Source of the DNA: an uncultured Piscirickettsiaceae bacterium | GTDB taxonomy: Bacteria; Pseudomonadota; Gammaproteobacteria; GCF-002020875 | Length of the DNA: 61,499 nt | Reading direction: 5' to 3' | Assembly (NCBI GenBank): GCA_964551545.1 | Contig: CAZKCT010000006.1 | Location: 1 to 61,499 of the forward strand | Shown here: in pieces, positions 39,721-50,211 of the stretch | Layout of the letters: each line of letters opens with the position of its first letter | How positions within the stretch are numbered: position 1 is the stretch's first letter | Translations under genes and position numbers: made by a program | Notes under the pieces: generated by a model | Database searches by the model: none | The model's input: only the letters and a program-made list of their open reading frames with translations | Told to the model about the DNA's origin: nothing

Positions 39721-40797
39721 ATGACATTTCGTACCCGTTACACTGGATTGATTGAAAACTACCGCGACCGTCTTCCGGTGAGTGAAGAGACCAAAGTGAT
39801 CAGCCTGGGCGAGGGCAATACCCCGCTGATCCAGTTGCAGAATATCCCTGCCGATCAAGGAGTCGATGCGGATATCTACGTCAAGTATGAGGGGCTCAAT
39901 CCGACCGGATCGTTTAAGGATCGCGGCATGTGCATGGCAGTCACCAAGGCCGTGGAAGAGGGAAGCAAGGCAATTATCTGCGCCTCTACAGGTAATACCT
40001 CTGCAGCGGCAGCGGCTTATGCAGCACGCGCCGGGATTACCGCATTTGTACTGATTCCCGATGGCAAGATTGCATTGGGCAAGCTGGCGCAGGCGATGAT
40101 GCATGGTGCCGTAGTCATCCAGATCAAGGGCAACTTCGATGCGGGGATGCAGCTGGTCAAGGAGATTGGTGAGAATACGCCAGTCACCATTGTGAACTCC
40201 ATCAACCCCTTCCGTCTACAAGGACAGAAGACGGCAGCCTTCGAGATTGTAGAAGAGCTGGGTCAGGCGCCAGACTACCACTGTCTGCCGGTGGGTAATG
40301 CGGGCAATATCTCCGCGCACTGGATGGGCTACAAAGAGTATGCTGAAGATGGGATAGTTTCTAATCGTCCCAAGATGGTGGGTTATCAGGCGGCGGGCGC
40401 AGCACCCTTCATGCGTGGTGAGATGGTTGATGAACCAGAGACCGTCGCGACCGCGATCCGTATTGGCCATCCTCAGAGCTGGGACAAGGCGTGGAAGGTT
40501 AAAGAGGAGTCCGAAGGGTGGTTTGATGAGTGCAGTGATGAAGAGATTCTGGCCGCACAGAAACTGCTTGCTGAGAAGGAGGGCGTCTTCTGTGAACCTG
40601 CATCTGCCACCTCAGTGGCTGGTGCGCTACGTGACCTCAAGAGCGGCAAGATTCCAGCTGGTAGCAAGGTGGTCTGCACCTTGACCGGACATGGTCTGAA
40701 AGATCCGGATACCGCGATTAAGCAGAGCACACGTCCATTGATCACGGTTGATGCAACGCTGGATGAGGTCAAGGAAGTGATTCTGGATAATATGTAA
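39721..40797 (+). CDS. thrC: Threonine synthase
   Basis: PLP-lysine motif NPTGSFKDRG, plus SSGNT-like ASTGNTSAA. Confidence 0.93.
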   Translation: MTFRTRYTGLIENYRDRLPVSEETKVISLGEGNTPLIQLQNIPADQGVDADIYVKYEGLNPTGSFKDRGMCMAVTKAVEEGSKAIICASTGNTSAAAAAYAARAGITAFVLIPDGKIALGKLAQAMMHGAVVIQIKGNFDAGMQLVKEIGENTPVTIVNSINPFRLQGQKTAAFEIVEELGQAPDYHCLPVGNAGNISAHWMGYKEYAEDGIVSNRPKMVGYQAAGAAPFMRGEMVDEPETVATAIRIGHPQSWDKAWKVKEESEGWFDECSDEEILAAQKLLAEKEGVFCEPASATSVAGALRDLKSGKIPAGSKVVCTLTGHGLKDPDTAIKQSTRPLITVDATLDEVKEVILDNM

Positions 40798-40822
40798 CGG
40801 TTAACCGTAATGTTGATGAAAG

Positions 40823-40854
40823 GGCTATAGGGCATGGTTCTGTAGCCTTTTTTT
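40823..40854 (+). terminator. Rho-independent terminator after thrC
   Basis: 8-bp stem ggctatag / ctgtagcc (one G-U pair) with a 9-nt loop, followed by seven Ts. Confidence 0.75.
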
Positions 40855-40890
40855 GTGTAACAATTTGTAACGAAAAGGAAAAAAATAATT

Positions 40891-40899
40891 TGGTAATAT
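40891..40899 (+). promoter_or_regulatory. Candidate extended -10 element (TGgTAATAT) upstream of the island operon
   Basis: TG at 40891-40892 and TAATAT at 40894-40899, within a 170-bp AT-rich leader. I saw no good -35. Several alternative -10-like hexamers exist in this AT-rich stretch. Confidence 0.25.
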
Positions 40900-41026
40900 G
40901 AAGACGTTGAGCGGTTAACGTTATAAATTATACGGAATTTGTATAGTGCGGCCTCCATGCGGAAAGGCCAAGTTTCTCATAAATTTTCGTTTTGATTTGA
41001 TGTGGCAGTTGTTAGAAGGTTAAAAA

Positions 41027-44000
41027 ATGGCAGGCTTAAAGCGCATTATCTTAATCGATACAGGACTCTTTCCAGGGAGAGATACTTTTCTGGATGTCAG
41101 TGGCCATACAACTGCCACAGGGACAAACGGCTCTGGCAAGACTTCGCTGATTTTGCTGATTCCCTTCTTTTATGGTCATGAGCCCCGATCACTCTCAACC
41201 CATGCAGCGGATAAGCAGAGTTTTGTCGATTTCTACCTTCCTAGAGTCAGTAGCTTACTGATATTCGAGTATGAAAACCACCTGGGAGAAGGAGTATGTG
41301 TTGTTGCCTCTCGATCTGTCTCGGGGTCGAGTGTGGTATACCAGTTCGTTAATGCCGCTTATGCGCCAGAGCTCTTTGTCAACGATAATGACAACTGTTT
41401 TTTTAATCGAGATGAGGTCTCTCATCAATGGGATCGTCTTGATATAGAGCACTCACCCAAGATTCAGAATATCAGAGAGTATCGCTCGATCATCCAGCAT
41501 GACACCAAGGTGATCCGATATTCATCAGAACGCAAGAAGCTACAGAGAATTGCGCAAAGCTATGCTTTAGGAAGTCGGAAAGACCCATTGCAGCACATGG
41601 AGAAGGTGACCCACTCAATTCTTACTGGGGTTGGAAGCATCTCTGGTATCAAGTCCATTCTTGCATCCATCCTGGAGAAGAAAATCGAGATCCCTTCTGC
41701 TCCGAAGAATGATAAGGCTATTGGCTCCTTTCAGGGGGCTTTGAGCGATTTTGAAACCATACTCAAGAGGGGAAAAATACCTGAAGCAGTTCGGGAGATG
41801 AACAAGTACCACTCTATTCGAGAGGAGCTTCGAAATATCCGTTTTCTCCTTGAGCAGAAAATGGTGGAGGGCAGTGAAGAACTTGAGCTGAAAAAAGAGA
41901 AGCTTGATCAGCTGGTGCTGTCCAACAGTAAAGCAAAAGCCAAACGGGATGAGGCTATCGAAGAGCTTACTGAAAGTGAGATTAAGGCCAGGAAAGAGAG
42001 TGAGAGTGCGGGTAAGCTAGTGTCCCGCGTCCTGAAAAAGAAAGAAGAGTATGAAGAGAAGGATGCAGAACAGGCGAAGCGTAAGCTGGAAACAGTCAGT
42101 GAACTGCAGTCCAGAGAGAGTGTAGCTAAATCGAGATATGAAACACTAATCGGGGAGTTCAAGGAGCTTGAGGAAGAGCATAGTAAGCGTAAAGATAAAC
42201 TTCAATTGGCTCACGATGCCTTGGTACAGTCAAAGAAGGGTGAGATTGCTGAAATCAAATTGAGGTTGGTGCAGCTTAATAGTGACCAAAAAGTTGAAGA
42301 AAATAAGTTGGAGCAAGAGAAGCTGATTGATATCAGTCGTATTAACTCCCAGCGTGCGGAGAAAAGAACAGAGTTAGCACAGAACCTTGCTACGCTCGAA
42401 GAGCGACTGAAGCACTCTTTTAAAACACCTGAAGAAGATGCGATTATCTCCAGTCGAACAGACCAGCGGGATGGCTTGATAAATGAGCAAAATGGACAGC
42501 AGGAAGAGTTCAATCGTATCCGTCAAGAGAAGGGAGGGGCAAAAGGAAAGTTGGATGATCTTGTTCGTCAGTATGAAGATCAGCATGAATCGGTCAAGGG
42601 TTTAAAGAGTCGCAAGCAACAGCTACTTAAAGACTACAATCCTAAAGACAGCACTTTTCTTTCAGCGCTGAAACAGTCAGATCCTGCTTGGAGTGAAACG
42701 GTTTCCAAGGTGATTAGTGGGGAGCTATTGCATCGAACAGACCTATCGCCAGAATTGATTGAGCAGGCCGAAAAACTCCTGTACGGCTGGGATCTTGATC
42801 TATCCAGAATTGAGTTGCCAGATTTTGCACAATCTGATGAATGGCTCAGGGAGGCTATTGATAGGCTGGAGCGTAAGATCATCAATGAAAAGGAGGTGCG
42901 AGAAACCTGGAACCAAAGTGTTGAAAAGCAGCGTGCTGATTTGAAGGGGTTGGAGGAAGCGTATGAACTACAGAAAACTACTCTTGCTCAAGTCTCAGGA
43001 AATCTAACGGCAGCAAACGAAGCGCTTGCTATATACCTTAGTGATGTTGATGCCCTTGTTGCAGAACGGAAAAAGCAGGAAAAGCAAGAGGCGGATGACC
43101 TTGCATCCAAGATTGATAAATTCGATATCGAGACCAAATTGTTAATAAGTGCTGTTGCAGACCAGTACCGGGAGAGCCAGAACAATGTAATCGGTAACTT
43201 TGGAATCCAGATTGGAGATCAAGAAAGTCGAAAACAATCCATAACGGATGAGATTACAAGTGCTGAAAAACAGCACAAGCTGGATATCAGGCAAGCAGAG
43301 GATGACTATTTTCAGCTTCTCTCTGAAAATGGAGTAGACGAAGAGATAGTTAAAACTGCCGATAGTGAGCGACAAAAGCTGAAAGAGGAGCTTCAGTCTG
43401 TTGAAAATTCCAGGCCATTTGTCCGTGAATATACGGAGTGGCTGGAGGCGGTATGGAGCAACTTAAATCAGTACGAAAGTGATGCCAGAGATGCCAATTC
43501 AACTCATCAGGATTTCTACAGTCAATTAGAGCAGGCCAAAAAGGAGCATCGCAACAAGCGAACCAGAGAGAAGAAGAAGGTGTCTGCTGCACAGGAGGAG
43601 ATCAAAAGTCTGGCAGATTTGACCGAGGAGTTATCACGTATATCAGCTGCTTTAGAAAGGGAAAATGTGCCAGCTGAAGAGCCGATCAATCCCCTGGTTC
43701 AGGATGTCGATACATTGAAGCAACGTGTTGATACCTTGCTTCATGATAATCATAAGCAGTCCAGAAAGCTGGTTCAGCTCTCACGTGGCGCAACTTTGAT
43801 TATTAAAGAGTGCCAAACTAAAGCGATCAAAGATGCATGGAGTGCGCATAGCCGCGAGCTTCTTGCAGAATTGAACAAGACTGCGAAGGGTGATGTTACA
43901 GAATTTGATGAGCAGTATTTTCATCAGGCTCCCATTGCACTTTCACAGTTTATGGGTGAGGATCTTGAGAAAATTGAAGACCTCTTTTCTGAGCAGGTTG

Positions 44001-44710
44001 CAGAAACAGCAATGTCTCTGCATGAACTATTTGGAGGGTTAAAGCTCATCTCGGATGAGATTAAGGCGCAGTCATCGTCTCTCTCTGCGGCAATATCTGG
44101 AGATGTCGAGTTTAAGGCTTTGGAGGGGGTACGGGTGGAGTTGAAACCTCGCATTGATCAACAGGAGTTCTGGGGAATATTGAAGCAGTTCTCAAAGAAA
44201 TGGGAGCAACAGCAACAGAGTGACCGCCGTATTGCTACTCCAAAATTCAGTGAGTATGAGCCGCGCTTTATTGAGTTACTCTCTGAAACCCAGCGAATGA
44301 TTTCACAGGCCAAGATCAGTGACTCTCTGGATACTCATTTCGATCTGGTGATCCATCTTAAAGAGAATGGTCACGAGCGAGTGATACGGTCAGATGCAGA
44401 TATCAATGGTAGCTCCAGTAAAGGGATTACCTATCTGGCCCTTTGTGTTCTCTTTGCCGGCGTTGTGAGAATGATCCGAAAAGATATGGGGATTCGTATT
44501 CACTGGCCAGTAGACGAGATTGGTATTCTCCATTCCGATAATTTTAAGGCCCTTCTCAGAATGCTTGATAAAGAGGGCATTACGATGGTGGGTGCTTTTC
44601 CTGATCCAGATCCAGCGAAACTTCGTTACTTTGATCGGTTATATAATGTAATAACTGATTTTGGTGTTGAGATTCTGATTCCCAAGCCGATGCCAAGGAG
44701 TGATCTGTGA
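41027..44710 (+). CDS. SMC-type ABC ATPase, MukB/MksB/JetC-like (split head, long coiled coil, compact hinge-like insert)
   Basis: Walker A GTNGSGKT (aa 32-39). Signature-like GSSSKG (aa 1128-1133). Walker B IHWPVDE (D1163/E1164). The C-terminal layout (...VDEIGILHSDNFKALLRMLDKEGITMVGAFPD) parallels MukB (...[32 protein letters not shown]). About 1000 aa of E/K/Q/L-rich coiled-coil-like sequence lies in between, interrupted near aa 545-625. Confidence 0.8.
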   Translation: MAGLKRIILIDTGLFPGRDTFLDVSGHTTATGTNGSGKTSLILLIPFFYGHEPRSLSTHAADKQSFVDFYLPRVSSLLIFEYENHLGEGVCVVASRSVSGSSVVYQFVNAAYAPELFVNDNDNCFFNRDEVSHQWDRLDIEHSPKIQNIREYRSIIQHDTKVIRYSSERKKLQRIAQSYALGSRKDPLQHMEKVTHSILTGVGSISGIKSILASILEKKIEIPSAPKNDKAIGSFQGALSDFETILKRGKIPEAVREMNKYHSIREELRNIRFLLEQKMVEGSEELELKKEKLDQLVLSNSKAKAKRDEAIEELTESEIKARKESESAGKLVSRVLKKKEEYEEKDAEQAKRKLETVSELQSRESVAKSRYETLIGEFKELEEEHSKRKDKLQLAHDALVQSKKGEIAEIKLRLVQLNSDQKVEENKLEQEKLIDISRINSQRAEKRTELAQNLATLEERLKHSFKTPEEDAIISSRTDQRDGLINEQNGQQEEFNRIRQEKGGAKGKLDDLVRQYEDQHESVKGLKSRKQQLLKDYNPKDSTFLSALKQSDPAWSETVSKVISGELLHRTDLSPELIEQAEKLLYGWDLDLSRIELPDFAQSDEWLREAIDRLERKIINEKEVRETWNQSVEKQRADLKGLEEAYELQKTTLAQVSGNLTAANEALAIYLSDVDALVAERKKQEKQEADDLASKIDKFDIETKLLISAVADQYRESQNNVIGNFGIQIGDQESRKQSITDEITSAEKQHKLDIRQAEDDYFQLLSENGVDEEIVKTADSERQKLKEELQSVENSRPFVREYTEWLEAVWSNLNQYESDARDANSTHQDFYSQLEQAKKEHRNKRTREKKKVSAAQEEIKSLADLTEELSRISAALERENVPAEEPINPLVQDVDTLKQRVDTLLHDNHKQSRKLVQLSRGATLIIKECQTKAIKDAWSAHSRELLAELNKTAKGDVTEFDEQYFHQAPIALSQFMGEDLEKIEDLFSEQVAETAMSLHELFGGLKLISDEIKAQSSSLSAAISGDVEFKALEGVRVELKPRIDQQEFWGILKQFSKKWEQQQQSDRRIATPKFSEYEPRFIELLSETQRMISQAKISDSLDTHFDLVIHLKENGHERVIRSDADINGSSSKGITYLALCVLFAGVVRMIRKDMGIRIHWPVDEIGILHSDNFKALLRMLDKEGITMVGAFPDPDPAKLRYFDRLYNVITDFGVEILIPKPMPRSDL

Positions 44711-45351
44711 ACCACTCCACAACTTTCCCAGTCGTAATTAATCGCCTGTTGGCTGCTGAAGTGATTTGCGAGAGCTCAACTAAAGGGGAGGAGTTTCTGC
44801 TGCTGAAAACGGAGGCGTTTTTCAATGAGGTGGATCGTTATCTCAACAAGATCAATTTGAAGCTAAAAGAGACTCCAGACGGCAGTGGTTTTTATGCAGC
44901 TTATCTTGATGCTAGTGGTCATGAAATAGAGATTCGACGCTATTTCAGAGAGGATGTCATGCACTCTCTTCAGCCTTTGGTTGGTGTGCTGCAGTTTATC
45001 AAGAGTGCTCAACAGAAAGATCGCCCATTGCGTCCAGGAGATACATTGAACATCTCAGAGATTATTGAGGCGGTTGAGCGTTCTGGAGTGGTTCTGCAGG
45101 ATGAGTTGGATTACCTCTCCCGTTCTAACCTTTTCAAGAATACAAAGAAAAAGACCAGTGAGCAGGTAGAGGTAATTGTTAAGAGGTTGGTTCAGCATCA
45201 GTATCTGGTGGAGCGTAGTGGTAGACCAATTGTCTATATCGCTACAGGGAAGTGGTCACTGGTTTATGAAATGATCGCTTACATCAATGATCATCAGAAC
45301 AGTGAAGATTCAGATGCAGAATTGGAGGATGCTCAAGGGGAGTTCTTTTGA
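44707..45351 (+). CDS. MukE/MksE/JetB-like (KITE-type) accessory subunit candidate
   Basis: GTG start overlapping the upstream stop (GTGA). FNEVDRYLNKINLKLKETPDGSGFYAAYLD resembles, from memory, the MukE segment [22 protein letters not shown] and the JetB pattern around LGLEL..DE.EGYAFL. It has an acidic C-terminal tail. Confidence 0.55.
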   Translation: MNHSTTFPVVINRLLAAEVICESSTKGEEFLLLKTEAFFNEVDRYLNKINLKLKETPDGSGFYAAYLDASGHEIEIRRYFREDVMHSLQPLVGVLQFIKSAQQKDRPLRPGDTLNISEIIEAVERSGVVLQDELDYLSRSNLFKNTKKKTSEQVEVIVKRLVQHQYLVERSGRPIVYIATGKWSLVYEMIAYINDHQNSEDSDAELEDAQGEFF

Positions 45352-46571
45352 GTAAAAATCGCCAGGCCACAGAAGATCTGCTAAAGGCACTTTACAAGCA
45401 TAGAGCGCTGATTAGCCTGATTCACCAAAATGGTTATGCTATTGAAGATGGCGATAACAGTAGTGCGATCACAGAACTGCATAGTTACAGAACTTTATGG
45501 AGACCCAATACTGTAGATAGTGATGAGGTGCGTCTCACCCAGTCGTTGTCGAGCACACTTGGCCTTGCGGTCGAGGAGTATGTTGCACGTGATATTGATA
45601 AGGATATGGGAGGATATCTTGATCTAATCAAGCGTCAGATTGATGGCTATCAGGCGGCAAAGCGTAGTGCAGCCTATTCAGATAGTGAGACCTATCTCAA
45701 TCAACTATCGGAGACTGTATATAATCTGATTGAGCATCTGGCTCATGCAGTTAAGTCGACTTGGTACAACATAGACAGTCAGTTTCGTTATGTGCAGACG
45801 ATAGAGTCCAAAGAACGAGAGGCGCAATATTTGCTTGAGAGTATCAAGAAGCTGCGTAATGGTCTTTCTATCTTCAATACTACCGAGATGCAGCGGCTTG
45901 CTGGTAGTGATGCAAAGCTGTTCCGTCTATTGGTGAGTCGTTTACCCAATAATATTGCAATCTTCCGGTCTGAAATTGTTGAGGTCATCGAGCGCCTTAA
46001 GGATCTGCTGTTTGAAATGAAAGAGATTCAGATCCAATCCAGAGCACTGCAGTTTGTACATGACCTTTTCAGAAAAAAAGGTGATGAGAGTGAGGTAGAT
46101 GAGAAATTCTTTCCTATAGAAATGATTAACCGAATTGAGAATAGAGCAGTTCGGGCATATCCAGATGTTGATGCTGTCGTCGATCAACAGCTATTGGAGG
46201 GTATTGTAACCAAGCTTACCTCGCAGAGAAGAGAGGAGCATGAGAGAGAAGTTGAGTGTATCAAGGTTCAGTTGAGCGAAACGCCAACTTCAGAAATAGT
46301 TGAAAGCGCAGTCGGTCAAGCGGTCACTCTGTTCTTTGAGCGGGTCGCTAAGAAGGGTGAGGCAAGCGTTAGTGATAGCAGAGATTTGATTCCTGAAGAG
46401 GATGTGCCTATTTCCGCTGAGGTATGGATGTTTAGCGTAATGGCGCGCTATAACATTATGCAAGATGGTGATAGGAAGTGCTTTACGTTGCGTCGCATTG
46501 CTGAACAGGATCATTATTTTAATGGCGTCCACTATGTTGAAGATATCTTCTTTAAGGCAGTACAGGAGTAG
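45348..46571 (+). CDS. Hypothetical protein in the kleisin (MukF/MksF/JetA) slot of the operon
   Basis: TTG start overlapping the upstream stop (TTGA). The 407-aa product looks largely helical. I recognise no diagnostic motif, so the assignment rests on context only. Confidence 0.3.
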   Translation: MSKNRQATEDLLKALYKHRALISLIHQNGYAIEDGDNSSAITELHSYRTLWRPNTVDSDEVRLTQSLSSTLGLAVEEYVARDIDKDMGGYLDLIKRQIDGYQAAKRSAAYSDSETYLNQLSETVYNLIEHLAHAVKSTWYNIDSQFRYVQTIESKEREAQYLLESIKKLRNGLSIFNTTEMQRLAGSDAKLFRLLVSRLPNNIAIFRSEIVEVIERLKDLLFEMKEIQIQSRALQFVHDLFRKKGDESEVDEKFFPIEMINRIENRAVRAYPDVDAVVDQQLLEGIVTKLTSQRREEHEREVECIKVQLSETPTSEIVESAVGQAVTLFFERVAKKGEASVSDSRDLIPEEDVPISAEVWMFSVMARYNIMQDGDRKCFTLRRIAEQDHYFNGVHYVEDIFFKAVQE

Positions 46572-46574
46572 CTA

Positions 46575-47414
46575 TTGAATCAGCAGCTCTATAGTGCAAT
46601 GCGTAATCTGGTTATCCAGAACGAATCTAGATTGCGCCTTGGCAGGACATCAAGGCAGATTGTAGATCTGTTTGGTGTAGGCAAAGAAGCAGGAGGAAGC
46701 GTTCTGTTTTCAGAGGAGGATATCTCACGGCTCATCAGTAAGATAAAAGAGCAGTATGGTCATGATCTTAGATTCGATAGAGAATTTGAGGAACTCTCTC
46801 AAGGGCGTTATGAGATGAGCAAGGTTTCTGTAAATGAAAAAGAGAGTCCGAAAGCAGTTTTTGATCGATATATACAGGTCACCTCAAATGGTGAAATCCC
46901 TATGAGGCAGGGAGGTGTGCGAGTACCGAACAAAACGTTGTTGATGTGTGATCATGATGATGTGCTCTGGGAGCGGGTGGATGCAGTGGTTATAACTGAG
47001 AACGGAGTTGCTGCTCAGCGATGGCAGGAAGCTGAAGTTGATGGTCTTCCAGTAGTGACCGTTATGATTTATCGAGGGCATGACTATCTGGCTAAACATG
47101 TCCTGAACGCTGTTGAGTTAGCCAAGGAGTACCAGTGCAAGATATATGGATTTTTTGATGTTGACCCAAAAGGATTGGAGCTGGGGCTTTCCCTTGAGGC
47201 GGATGGGGTAGTGATTCCAGCAGTGCTGGACATTGAGGATCTTTCGTATAGAGATCGATATCAAGATCAGATTGGATACCTTGGTGGTCTTGAGAATAAA
47301 GTGCCTGAATCTCTTAGAGAGTATTACCATTGGATGACATCCGGTCGAGTGGCAATTAATCAGGAATTGTTGATATCAAGAAAGGTGAGTTTGGTGGTTC
47401 ATGAAGTGGCTTGA
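46575..47414 (+). CDS. Toprim-domain protein, JetD/MksG C-terminal-domain-like (DUF2220-like) nuclease candidate
   Basis: TTG start 3 nt after the upstream stop. The Toprim acidic set is VVITEN (E142) and FFDVDPKG (D195, D197), followed by a late INQE motif. At 279 aa it is shorter than the JetD length I recall. Confidence 0.6.
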   Translation: MNQQLYSAMRNLVIQNESRLRLGRTSRQIVDLFGVGKEAGGSVLFSEEDISRLISKIKEQYGHDLRFDREFEELSQGRYEMSKVSVNEKESPKAVFDRYIQVTSNGEIPMRQGGVRVPNKTLLMCDHDDVLWERVDAVVITENGVAAQRWQEAEVDGLPVVTVMIYRGHDYLAKHVLNAVELAKEYQCKIYGFFDVDPKGLELGLSLEADGVVIPAVLDIEDLSYRDRYQDQIGYLGGLENKVPESLREYYHWMTSGRVAINQELLISRKVSLVVHEVA

Positions 47415-47481
47415 GGTGTATAAGCAGGATCAGTAGGTAATGATATGATGAATATGTCAATGCTAGTTAATGAGGTGGTGT

Positions 47482-47706
47482 ATGAGGACAGTCGTAGATA
47501 TTCCAGATGAGCAGATTTCTCTCCTTAAACAGGTCGGAGAACGAGACCATCTCTCTCGTGCCGAGATGGTACGCCGTGCAGTTGCAGATTACATTGCCAA
47601 GTGTATGAATGTTACAAAGGAAGATGGCAGTTTTGGTCTCTGGAAAGATCGCAGGGAGGATGGGGTTGCCATGCAGCAGAGGTTGCGTAAGGAGTGGGAG
47701 CCTTGA
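47482..47706 (+). CDS. vapB: Ribbon-helix-helix (CopG/VapB-type) antitoxin
   Basis: MRTVVDIPDEQISLLKQ...SRAEMVRRAVADYI is a typical RHH N-terminus. A GAGGTGG Shine-Dalgarno sequence lies just upstream of ATG 47482. An alternative ATG is at 47470. Confidence 0.7.
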   Translation: MRTVVDIPDEQISLLKQVGERDHLSRAEMVRRAVADYIAKCMNVTKEDGSFGLWKDRREDGVAMQQRLRKEWEP

Positions 47707-48065
47707 AGGCGCTACTGGATAGTAATATTTTGATTGATTACCTCAATGGGATTGTAGATGCCAAGGTAGAGATTGAGCGGTATACCTCACCTATGATCAG
47801 TGCAATCAGCTGGATGGAAGTGATGGCGGGAGCAAGTCGGGATGAAGAGGGGGTTGTACGTAGATTTCTCTCTCGTTTTATTCAGGTGCCAGTCGATCAT
47901 CAGGTTGCCGAGTTGGCAGTAGAGATACGCAGGCGTACCAGAATTCGATTACCTGATGCGATTATCTGGGCCTCGGCTCAGTCGGAAGAGGCACTGTTGG
48001 TGAGCCGTAACAGTCGGGATTTTCCAGAGGATGATCCCGGTGTTCGCATTCCTTATTCTGTGTAG
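47694..48065 (+). CDS. vapC: PIN-domain toxin VapC
   Basis: PIN acidic residues are in LLDSNILIDYL, ISWMEVMAG and PDAIIWASA. It overlaps the antitoxin stop. The start is either GTG 47694 or TTG 47703. Confidence 0.8.
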   Translation: MGALKALLDSNILIDYLNGIVDAKVEIERYTSPMISAISWMEVMAGASRDEEGVVRRFLSRFIQVPVDHQVAELAVEIRRRTRIRLPDAIIWASAQSEEALLVSRNSRDFPEDDPGVRIPYSV

Positions 48066-48076
48066 CTTGATTTTGG

Positions 48077-48508
48077 ATGGAAAATTTTCATGTAGCCCCG
48101 GTTCATCTGGTGCCTGACTGGGATGTGCTGCGCCTGTTCCAGTTTGAGCCGGGAGAGATCCCGCAACAGACCCAGCAGCAGCTGATTGAGCTGTTGACCC
48201 CACTGTTTGCAGAGCATCAAATGGTGTTGAGTTACCAGAGTGATCTGCGTTGGCAGCTGCAGCTGCCAAAACGGGAACCAGTCTTGACCACCCCCATTGA
48301 TTGGGCAACCGGCCATAACCTCCATCAGGCAATGCCGCGAGGAGAGAGTGCACTGCGCTGGAAACAGATTCTCAATGAGGCACAGATGGTGCTGCATGGT
48401 GCGCCGATCAATCAACAACCGGATCAGTTGGCGGTTAACGGCATCTGGGTCTGGCGGGATCCCTCGCTGATGGATCGGCTGCGTCACCGCTGGAGTCAGC
48501 GTTCATGA
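48077..48508 (+). CDS. Hypothetical protein; possibly the 5'-truncated remnant of an RpfE-type (COG4255-like) gene that is commonly adjacent to recJ
   Basis: The 143-aa ORF overlaps the recJ start by 4 nt. The segments APVHLVPDWD, NEAQMVLHGAPINQQ and VNGIWVW recall, from memory, the family pattern ADPVHL..D / EAQM.LH..P.N / N..W.WG. The first few codons lie in AT-rich island-type sequence. Confidence 0.4.
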   Translation: MENFHVAPVHLVPDWDVLRLFQFEPGEIPQQTQQQLIELLTPLFAEHQMVLSYQSDLRWQLQLPKREPVLTTPIDWATGHNLHQAMPRGESALRWKQILNEAQMVLHGAPINQQPDQLAVNGIWVWRDPSLMDRLRHRWSQRS

Positions 48509-50211
48509 GGGTGGTCGAGCGCAGTGTGCCAGAAGGTGAGCCACTGCAGGGGCTCTCGCCACTGCTTGATCGGATCTACCGTGCTCGCGGGGTGACTCAC
48601 TCTGATCATCTGGATCACGCCCTGAAGCGGCTGTTGCCGATCTCCTCGTTGATGAATGTCGAGCGTGCAGCAGAAGTCGTAGCAACCTCGATTCATAACC
48701 GAGAATCGATGGTTGTGGTGGGGGATTATGATGCCGATGGGGCAACGGCCTGCAGTGTCTGTATGCGGGGGCTGGGGGCGATGGGTGCCAATATTCGCTA
48801 CATCGTGCCCGACCGGAAAAAACATGGCTATGGCCTCTCTCCACAGCTGGTTGAGTTGGCGTTGCAGCATGAACCACAACTGCTGATCACGGTGGATAAC
48901 GGTATCTCCAGTGTTGAGGGGGTGGCTGCTGCAAAGGCGTACGGGATGAAGGTGGTGGTGACGGATCACCATCTGCCGGGTGAGATGTTGCCGGATGCCG
49001 ATGTGATCGTGAACCCCAATCAGCCAGGCGATAATTTTGCCAGCCCTCATCTGGCGGGGGTCGGGGTCGCCTTCTATCTTGTCTGTGCAGTAAAGCAGAC
49101 GTTGCAGCATGATTTTAATCCAGCCACCCTGCTTGATCTGGTGGTAGTAGGGACGGTGGCTGATGTGGTGCAACTGGATCAGAACAACCGGATTCTGGTG
49201 CAACAGGGTATCGAGCGCATTCGGCGTGGCCTCTGCTCACCCGGCATCTCCGCGCTGCTGGAGGTATCCAAACGGGAGCAGGCGCGTGTTGTCGCCACCG
49301 ATTTCGGCTTTGGTGTGGGGCCGAGGATCAATGCCGCTGGAAGAATGACAGAGATGGGGGCGGGGATTGAGTGCCTCCTTGCTGAAACACTGCAGCAGGC
49401 ACAGCTGCAGGCGCAGGCCCTTGACCAGATTAATCGTCAGCGGCGAGAGGTGGAGGGGGAGATCCGCGAAGAGGCGGAGCAGATCATCGCCTCATTGCAT
49501 ATGGAACGCAGCCAGCACGCCGCCGGGATTGCCCTCTATCAGCCCCACTGGCATGAGGGGGTGATCGGAATTGTTGCGGGAAGAATCAAGGAGCAGATGC
49601 ACCGCCCGACGGTGGTCTTCGCCAGAGGGGAGGATGGGGTGCTCAAGGGGTCGGCGCGATCCATTTCGGGTCTTCATCTGCGAGATCTGCTGGATGCACT
49701 GGCCAAACAGCAGCCGGGGCTGATCCTCAAGTTTGGAGGACATGCCATGGCGGCAGGATTGTCGATTGAAGCGGTCGATTTTGACCGTTTTCGACTCGCC
49801 TTTGAGCAGCTGGTGGCGGAGACTGTGAGTGAGGATCTGCTGGAAGAGGTGCTGTTGGTCGACGGTGCGCTTGATGCTGATGAGTGTTCGCTGGAGAGCG
49901 CAGCGATGTTGCAACAGGCCGGGCCGTGGGGGCAGGGATTCCCGGAGCCCTGCTTCCGTAACCAGTTTCTGCTGGAGCGTTGGCGAATCGTCGGTGAGCG
50001 CCATCTCAAGCTCTGGGTGAGAGCCCCAGGAAGTGGTGAGGTACTGGATGCGATTGCTTTCAATCAGGCAGAGATTCCACTGCCGGAGGCAGGCGGTCTG
50101 TTGGATCTGGTCTATCGCCTCGATATCAATCGCTGGCAGGGGAGAGAGACGCTTCAATTGATGGTTGAGGCGGTGATTCAGGCGGATGAGCGCACAACAG
50201 AGCGTGTATAA
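48505..50211 (+). CDS. recJ: Single-stranded-DNA-specific exonuclease RecJ
   Basis: DHH-family motifs VVVGDYDADGATA, ITVDNG and VVVTDHH, plus the DHHA1 motif GGHAMAAG. Confidence 0.95.
   Translation: MRVVERSVPEGEPLQGLSPLLDRIYRARGVTHSDHLDHALKRLLPISSLMNVERAAEVVATSIHNRESMVVVGDYDADGATACSVCMRGLGAMGANIRYIVPDRKKHGYGLSPQLVELALQHEPQLLITVDNGISSVEGVAAAKAYGMKVVVTDHHLPGEMLPDADVIVNPNQPGDNFASPHLAGVGVAFYLVCAVKQTLQHDFNPATLLDLVVVGTVADVVQLDQNNRILVQQGIERIRRGLCSPGISALLEVSKREQARVVATDFGFGVGPRINAAGRMTEMGAGIECLLAETLQQAQLQAQALDQINRQRREVEGEIREEAEQIIASLHMERSQHAAGIALYQPHWHEGVIGIVAGRIKEQMHRPTVVFARGEDGVLKGSARSISGLHLRDLLDALAKQQPGLILKFGGHAMAAGLSIEAVDFDRFRLAFEQLVAETVSEDLLEEVLLVDGALDADECSLESAAMLQQAGPWGQGFPEPCFRNQFLLERWRIVGERHLKLWVRAPGSGEVLDAIAFNQAEIPLPEAGGLLDLVYRLDINRWQGRETLQLMVEAVIQADERTTERV

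Follow-up and report, generated by a model that had tools for sequence, protein, structure and literature searches.

A permuted MksBEFG-like SMC operon from an uncultured Piscirickettsiaceae bacterium is a divergent member of the BEFG clade of the Wadjet group

Wadjet systems, also described as JetABCD, MksBEFG or EptABCD, join an ATPase resembling those of the structural maintenance of chromosomes (SMC) family, a KITE subunit and a kleisin to a nuclease that is related to the A subunit of topoisomerase VI (Topo VI-A), combines a CAP with a Toprim domain and lacks a catalytic tyrosine. Three types are recognised (PMC10586767), and the canonical operon order is mksFEBG or jetABCD (Weiss et al. 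2023, PMC10123090); MksG/JetD is established both as a Topo VI-A homologue and as the plasmid-cutting effector (PMC10123090; PMC10586767). Mechanistic work has so far addressed type I, together with one structure of type II. A wider "Wadjet group" was delineated by Bürmann et al. 2025 (Cell, PMC7617805) through six rounds of profile searches and operon inference, and the 869 clusters in their Data S1 are distributed by gene order as FEBG (609), GFEB (155), FEB (93), BEFG (11) and BEF (1). Here we analyse a four-gene operon of the order B-E-F-G on the metagenome contig CAZKCT010000006.1 (assembly GCA_964551545.1) from an uncultured Piscirickettsiaceae bacterium; the window, as we call it throughout, is the whole stretch of 61,499 nucleotides (nt). 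The operon is a divergent member of the catalogued BEFG clade of the Wadjet group, and we consider it probable, though well short of certain, that its products form an SMC nuclease complex of the MksBEFG/JetABCD kind that restricts plasmids and other mobile DNA. Its open reading frames (ORFs) are as follows.

41027..44710, + strand: ORF1, SMC-like ABC ATPase, the MksB/JetC equivalent (ATG start, 1227 amino acids, Pfam DUF3584)
44707..45351, + strand: ORF2, assigned as the KITE subunit, the MksE/JetB/MukE equivalent (GTG start, 214 amino acids)
45348..46571, + strand: ORF3, probable kleisin, the MksF/JetA/MukF equivalent (TTG start, 407 amino acids)
46575..47414, + strand: ORF4, putative compact nuclease subunit, the MksG/JetD equivalent (TTG start, 279 amino acids, Pfam DUF7281)

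One BEFG row of Data S1 (PMC7617805), on the Acinetobacter indicus plasmid CP044456.1 (100873-107379), comprises mksB (100873-104592), mksE (104603-105256), mksF (105253-106503) and mksG (106516-107379). This row coincides exactly with a homologous operon, L005, to which the window proteins are connected directly, with expectation values (E) of 2.9e-37 for ORF1, 1.2e-20 for ORF2 and 1.1e-12 for ORF4, and through the family alignment for ORF3. The published head-plus-hinge tree unites the 12 BEF(G) MksB proteins, within the Wadjet group, in a single clade that has 100% support (PMC7617805). The window operon shares with the catalogued BEFG and BEF operons its gene order, its four families and its protein sizes (about 1230, 210, 410 and 285 amino acids); it is set apart from them by an ORF1 whose identity to non-self cluster representatives does not exceed 29%. 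The permuted arrangement is already catalogued, unnamed and outside types I-III, and the main text of Bürmann et al. 2025 does not mention it. An earlier, first-pass annotation of this DNA had proposed a divergent or undescribed system, a claim to novelty that was to lapse if a known Wadjet/Mks group already had this order; Bürmann et al. 2025 lists one, with its 11 BEFG clusters and its BEF cluster, and what survives of the claim is that the locus is divergent, untyped and free of matches in PADLOC-DB 2.0. The candidate of an undescribed fourth Wadjet type was dropped once Data S1 was found to list BEFG operons.

Compared with types I-III, the window contains the gene set of the Wadjet group, that is, co-directional and consecutive MksB-, MksE- and MksF-like genes with a flanking MksG-like gene, in the order SMC-KITE-kleisin-nuclease (B-E-F-G), whereas types I-III run kleisin-KITE-SMC-nuclease (F-E-B-G) or place the nuclease first (G-F-E-B). 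The first-pass annotation had recognised an SMC-type operon of the Wadjet/Mks kind and had remarked that its order is permuted; the family and fold assignments below agree with the former, and the order given by Weiss et al. 2023 does indeed differ. None of the type-specific JetA, JetB, JetC and JetD models (the types of Doron et al. 2018, as represented in PADLOC-DB 2.0) captured the locus: at E ≤ 1 the four window proteins had no Jet model match at all, and among homologues only the JetD models matched significantly, with JetC marginal and JetA and JetB giving no match. In common with types I-III are also the translational coupling, a mobile or defence context and the existence of nuclease-less derivatives. 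Unlike theirs, the window ATPase is Pfam DUF3584 from end to end rather than a protein of the JetC models, the probable kleisin goes unrecognised by every sequence model of MukF, JetA or MksF, and the nuclease belongs to DUF7281.

The four ORFs form a genuine, translationally coupled operon. ORF1 and ORF2 overlap in the sequence GTGA (44707-44710) and ORF2 and ORF3 in TTGA (45348-45351), and a gap of 3 nt (46572-46574) separates ORF3 from ORF4. A Shine-Dalgarno sequence lies 5-7 nt 5' of each of the three non-ATG starts (AAGGAG, GGGGAG and AGGAG, respectively), and these start codons are credible because the N-termini they define coincide in alignments with those of homologues. A consensus scan of 40700-48600 yielded neither a promoter-like site upstream of ORF1 nor, on the + strand, anything resembling a terminator. 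The ORF listing and junction sequences bear out the four co-directional, coupled ORFs described in the first pass, and the motifs quoted there for ORF1 and ORF4 proved to be residues conserved in the family alignments (44 and 17 sequences, respectively).

Pfam DUF3584 spans ORF1 from residue 8 to residue 1207 (E 6e-150), and three segments stand out in its family alignment.

41120..41143, + strand: Walker A motif GTNGSGKT of ORF1, residues 32-39, including K38 (N34, G37 and K38 invariant in 44 family members)
42644..42826, + strand: conserved central domain of ORF1, residues ~540-600, presumed dimerisation hinge (conservation peak between helical arms)
44405..44518, + strand: signature-like NGSSSKG (1127-1133) through Walker B HWPVDE (1159-1164) of ORF1 (invariant residues, hhalign)

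S1131 and G1133 of the signature and D1163 and E1164 of Walker B are invariant in the 44 sequences, and the stretch that holds them aligns in hhalign with the same region of MukB and SbcC. The conservation profile delineates heads at residues 1-230 and ~1000-1227, two coiled-coil arms of ~300-350 residues and a conserved centre of ~60 residues, in which L548, W555, L568, L573, P575 and G587 are invariant or nearly so and which is flanked by poorly conserved helical arms. Neither the alignment nor the profile contains a CxxC zinc hook in this central domain, which is presumed to be the dimerisation hinge. At 1227 residues, with Walker motifs, arms and presumed hinge, ORF1 exceeds the 890 residues that mark a Wadjet-group ATPase. 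Searches of PDB sequences returned no match for the single ORF1 sequence and, for its profile, only coiled-coil noise and generic ABC P-loops. Clustering at 50% identity gives 835 clusters of ORF1 relatives at E ≤ 1e-3 and, at the stricter E ≤ 1e-30, 370; almost all are 1220-1250 amino acids long, and the nearest non-self cluster representatives are only 28-29% identical to the window protein. The catalogue, by comparison, holds 12 BEF(G) clusters, a single one of which is BEF, against these 370 clusters and the three-gene forms that are common in our survey. As a separate matter of nomenclature, PADLOC labels both JetC1 and JetC2 "DUF3584 domain; MukB-like", although Pfam DUF3584 covers the window ATPase end to end and the JetC models barely match a homologue; usage of this label for Wadjet ATPases seems to be loose.

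ORF4 looks like a hydrolytic nuclease of the MksG/JetD kind. It matches Pfam DUF7281 (E 4.5e-28), and its AlphaFold2 model (mean predicted local distance difference test score, pLDDT, of 84.7) consists of a winged-helix, CAP-like domain (~1-85), a linker and a Toprim domain (~100-279) that contains the predicted metal site.

46998-47000 and 47157-47165, + strand: Toprim metal-binding residues E142 and D195-x-D197 of ORF4 (invariant in 17 family members)

In the alignment of 17 sequences E142-N143, D195-x-D197-P198 and Q263 are all invariant, and no tyrosine is. The top seven Foldseek matches of the model are all Topo VI-A, aligned over the whole protein (1d3y, E 2.2e-4, probability 0.99), and Topo VI-A also provides the only matches of the ORF4 family profile to PDB sequences, where a single-sequence search gave no match. 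ORF4 homologues match the PADLOC models JetD1, JetD2 and JetD3 (best 6e-9), over the Toprim part only, and additionally match Pfam DUF2399, JetD_C and TOP6A Toprim. These matches concur with the first-pass reading of ORF4 as carrying a Toprim domain like that of JetD/MksG, as do the lengths with its remark that ORF4 is shorter than JetD (279 amino acids compared with 345-430 positions in the PADLOC JetD models). With Topo VI-A and Spo11, ORF4 shares the whole-length alignment over winged helix and Toprim and the conserved Toprim acidic residues; it differs from them in the missing tyrosine, in having no B subunit, in its length and in being encoded with an SMC complex. Because no tyrosine is invariant, cleavage would be hydrolytic rather than proceed by the covalent topoisomerase mechanism, and its association with an SMC complex in the operon leads us to expect a hydrolytic nuclease that works as MksG/JetD does. 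Also invariant are R78 and E88-K89, the latter within an N-E-K motif, in the low-confidence linker between the winged helix and the Toprim domain (window 46806-46841); one possibility is a regulatory or docking role, in place of JetD's long N-terminal part.

ORF2 is identified by its family as an MksE-type KITE. Its homologues match Pfam PF21980 MksE, most strongly in L003 (1e-12, 49 bits against a cut-off of 27) and otherwise at 1e-4 to 1e-6, and match MukE and DUF4194 faintly; the window protein itself has a weak MksE match in precomputed Pfam annotation, which our own hmmscan run did not list. A Marinobacter homologue carries the NCBI name "condensin complex protein MksE", and the L005 homologue is assigned as MksE in Data S1 of Bürmann et al. 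2025 (PMC7617805). The family aligned with Escherichia coli MukE only non-significantly in hhalign (E 0.055), a weak test with its single-sequence template, and the ORF2 profile retrieved noise only from PDB sequences. The MukE/JetB-like character proposed in the first pass is thereby upheld through the MksE matches of the homologues. A conserved Q-G/Q-x-L/F-L/F tail, preceded by an acidic stretch, closes ORF2 (window 45300-45348) and all 15 of its homologues; since three-gene and four-gene forms alike have it, this tail probably makes contact with the core complex or with DNA, and not with the nuclease.

For ORF3, the evidence is suggestive of a kleisin equivalent to MksF, JetA or MukF rather than proof of one. 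No Pfam model matched ORF3 or nine homologues, no NCBIfam or PADLOC model matched ORF3 or the homologues tested, and the ORF3 profile gave only noise against PDB sequences. The AlphaFold2 model, whose confidence is limited by a shallow alignment of only 7 sequences (mean pLDDT 62.5; 84-90 in the bundle), comprises a winged helix (~1-70), a helical bundle (87-244), a poorly conserved linker of low model confidence (~250-320) and a domain of helices plus a hairpin (321-407), the sequence of domains that a kleisin would be expected to have. Its first-ranked Foldseek match in the PDB is 9gm7_C (E 0.013), chain C of a MukBEF entry, whose 440 residues equal MukF in length; 1t98_A, MukF(1-287), follows with a probability of 0.94, and 9 of the 23 top matches come from MukF or MukBEF entries. 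These MukF matches lie at E 0.013-0.18, with no match at E ≤ 1e-3. The L005 homologue is assigned as MksF in Data S1 (PMC7617805). The first-pass annotation had noted that ORF3 occupies the slot of a kleisin, which the structural resemblance to MukF favours and no sequence model corroborates.

With the MukBEF and MksBEF condensins the operon shares a core of SMC, KITE and probable kleisin, the MukF-like model of ORF3 and, in its three-gene relatives, the lack of a nuclease. It departs from them in its B-E-F order, where theirs is F-E-B, in an ORF1 of 1227 amino acids compared with 1486 in MukB, in having no significant sequence match to MukF or MukE, and in that the window copy includes a nuclease gene and lies in an island. 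A misleading name is attached to many ORF3 homologues of ~400 amino acids, which are called "phosphoenolpyruvate carboxylase" in RefSeq and UniProt (L007, L009, L010, L011 and L016, from Shewanella, Stutzerimonas, Alteromonas, Agarivorans and Aromatoleum); it looks like a propagated misannotation of kleisins, because it has no Pfam or NCBIfam support and the proteins are far too short.

Conservation of the cassette was surveyed in 96 loci: 10 on plasmids, 6 in genomes (among the matches listed) and 80 in metagenomes, the genome contigs having been searched with an alignment of 12 ORF1 sequences and the metagenomes scanned with the ORF1 C-terminus only. The SMC-KITE-kleisin order is kept, with all genes co-directional, in 96/96 loci, and most junctions are 4-nt overlaps (in the metagenome set, 53 between ORF1 and ORF2 and 49 between ORF2 and ORF3). 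ORF4 directly follows in every plasmid locus (10/10), in 1/6 genome loci and in 23 of the 57 metagenome loci that could be scored, the remainder of the 80 being too short for gene number to be judged; it is absent from the other 5 genome loci and 34 scorable metagenome loci, where housekeeping genes follow instead. Overall, 35 loci were scored as four-gene and 39 as three-gene. In a neighbour-joining tree of ORF3, four-gene forms span the whole tree and three-gene forms are confined to one derived clade (Alteromonas, Shewanella, Agarivorans and Thiocystis), with the window ORF3 on a long isolated branch. This pattern fits loss of the nuclease and parallels the published idea that MksBEF arose from JetABCD through loss of JetD (PMC10586767).

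The plasmid copies inspected lie in records of 107 kb to 925 kb that include conjugative IncC, IncP and MOBH plasmids. Two of the ten are decaying: L004 (970-5942), on an Enterobacter IncC plasmid, has its ORF1 interrupted by ISSod4, and L006 (2278-7872), on a Vibrio campbellii plasmid, has both ORF1 and ORF3 split. L004 adjoins an operon resembling a cyclic-oligonucleotide-based anti-phage signalling system (CBASS), with genes for a nucleotidyltransferase, a ThiF-family adenylyltransferase, an MPN-family protein and a SAVED-domain protein; L003 is near a RES toxin and a helicase and methyltransferase pair, and L017, the copy of Acinetobacter johnsonii, has a vapBC pair nearby. The L004 type recurs in near-identical form in Vibrio cholerae, Salmonella enterica, Providencia stuartii and Shewanella baltica, and the L017 type on hundreds of Acinetobacter contigs, a distribution suggestive of spread by way of IncC or SXT-like elements and of plasmids of Acinetobacter.

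In the window, the operon occupies a low-GC island between hom-thrC and recJ-prfB-lysS, a chromosomal position, with a GC content of 0.44-0.47 over 41-48 kb and of 0.51-0.60 in the flanks. Directly 3' of ORF4, within the same island, are a VapB-like antitoxin (78 amino acids as listed among the ORFs and 74 as called on the contig, with no Pfam match) and a PIN-domain VapC (E 4.1e-15), together at 47470-48065, where the island ends. The GC profile and the VapC match agree with the first-pass description of an AT-richer island adjoining a toxin-antitoxin pair. A search of the island edges for an integrase, a tRNA gene or flanking repeats found none. Between the island and recJ lies an ORF of 143 amino acids (48077-48508) that has host-like GC content, overlaps the recJ start by 4 nt and has no Pfam match.

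If the four proteins work as a Wadjet-group complex, ORF1, the MksB-like subunit, would dimerise through its central hinge, and its heads would bind and hydrolyse ATP (K38, S1131 and D1163/E1164). ORF3 would act as an MksF-like kleisin that bridges the ORF1 heads and closes the ring, an MksE-like KITE dimer of ORF2 would sit on ORF3, and two rings would probably pair into a dimer of dimers through the N-terminal winged helix and helical bundle of ORF3. ORF4 would be the effector, a small Topo VI-A-like winged-helix and Toprim nuclease that has its metal site at E142, D195 and D197 and lacks a catalytic tyrosine. If the analogy with type I Wadjet holds, the motor would load on DNA and extrude loops; completed extrusion on a small DNA circle would then free the nuclease from inhibition and lead to cleavage, with the outcome that plasmids and similar mobile DNA are restricted and the chromosome is spared. 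Such Wadjet-like restriction of plasmids or other mobile genetic elements is the likely function of the operon.

Several observations weigh against this interpretation. At the level of the motor, the ORF1 C-terminal head matches MukB (E 1.7e-5) and SbcC (E 2.1e-5) about equally in hhalign, no PADLOC JetC model matches the window ORF1, and a homologue matches JetC only marginally (8.6e-5). The kleisin call for ORF3 depends on a medium-confidence model and the catalogue assignment, and hhalign of the family with E. coli MukF, a weak single-sequence template, was not significant (probability 0.2%). At the effector, only ~85 residues precede the linker and Toprim domain of ORF4, compared with ~250 positions in the PADLOC JetD models; since in type I an IFDR motif of JetB contacts the aCAP domain of JetD (PMC10586767) and the N-terminal part of ORF4 is short, coupling of ORF4 to the motor may differ from that of type I. 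Many copies are themselves plasmid-borne, and one of them, H13, is on an Acinetobacter plasmid of only 40 kb, which its own system would attack if the type I size rule applied. Our literature searches found no experiment on any four-gene BEFG system and no characterisation of DUF3584 (PF12128) or DUF7281 other than that of Price et al. (bioRxiv 10.1101/072470), which concerns the three-gene form: DUF3584 and two hypothetical neighbours with which it is cofit are needed, specifically, for cisplatin resistance and motility in three Shewanella species. This phenotype of a nuclease-less form suggests that the core complex acts on the chromosome or in repair.

The Shewanella result is also an argument for regarding the operon as a chromosome-maintenance or DNA-repair complex, in which ORF1-3 would organise or repair host DNA and ORF4 would process lesions or crosslinks, and both the equal similarity of ORF1 to SbcC and MukB and the placement of three-gene forms among housekeeping genes are in keeping with it. 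The phenotype data concern the nuclease-less form only, however; the window copy and all inspected four-gene copies reside in low-GC islands, on plasmids or in defence neighbourhoods rather than at conserved core positions, and the JetD/MksG type, to which the nuclease belongs, is known for cleaving plasmids. We regard a repair function of the four-gene operon as unlikely. The consistent presence of ORF4 on large and conjugative plasmids, the homologue clusters in V. cholerae, Salmonella, Providencia and Acinetobacter, and the fact that Wadjet operons can be plasmid-encoded (reviewed in PMC10586767) would suit a different arrangement, in which large plasmids or integrative and conjugative elements use the system to destroy competing smaller plasmids or incoming phage DNA under a target rule that may differ from that of type I. 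The window copy, by contrast, sits on the chromosome in the thrC-recJ interval without the integrase, tRNA gene or flanking repeats that were sought, and the 40-kb plasmid is a small carrier; this is, moreover, a variant of the Wadjet explanation and not a different mechanism, and as the primary role of the operon we rate it as decidedly unlikely. Least plausible, to a degree that makes it a very improbable account, is a sensor like Rad50/SbcC or Lamassu, whereby ORF1 would detect DNA ends or replication intermediates and activate ORF4 in abortive infection with no loop extrusion. A homologue of ORF1 does match PADLOC LmuB weakly (5e-4), in the coiled-coil region, and the similarity to the SbcC head is noted above, but the centre of ORF1 has no CxxC zinc hook, ORF1 is accompanied not by Mre11/SbcD or LmuA/LmuC but by a KITE and a MukF-like protein, the defining components of MukBEF-type rings, which Rad50 and Lamassu systems lack, and the published tree sets the BEFG clade inside the Wadjet group (PMC7617805).

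A bolder reading, which we hold tentatively and think doubtful, treats BEFG as a mechanistically distinct fourth Wadjet type, in which a minimal Topo VI-A-like nuclease, without JetD's extended N-terminal region, would be joined to the motor in a novel manner, perhaps through the invariant R78/E88-K89 linker or the conserved ORF2 tail. Its target may be damaged or crosslinked DNA, phage DNA or the competitors of large carrier plasmids, and its nuclease-less descendants would have been domesticated for chromosome repair; if true, that domestication would explain the cisplatin phenotype in Shewanella.

Wadjet is the reference case of an SMC loop-extruding motor that senses DNA shape, and the BEFG clade appears much commoner than its one catalogue suggests, with 370 clusters of ATPase relatives (50% identity, E ≤ 1e-30) and copies in Vibrio cholerae, Acinetobacter, IncC plasmids and marine bacteria. 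Because its nuclease is stripped down, the clade could reveal what activation requires of JetD. Natural pairs with and without the nuclease are a further feature, and one nuclease-less form already has a fitness phenotype. For genome annotation, quartets named [quoted passage not shown] should be read as Wadjet-group systems.

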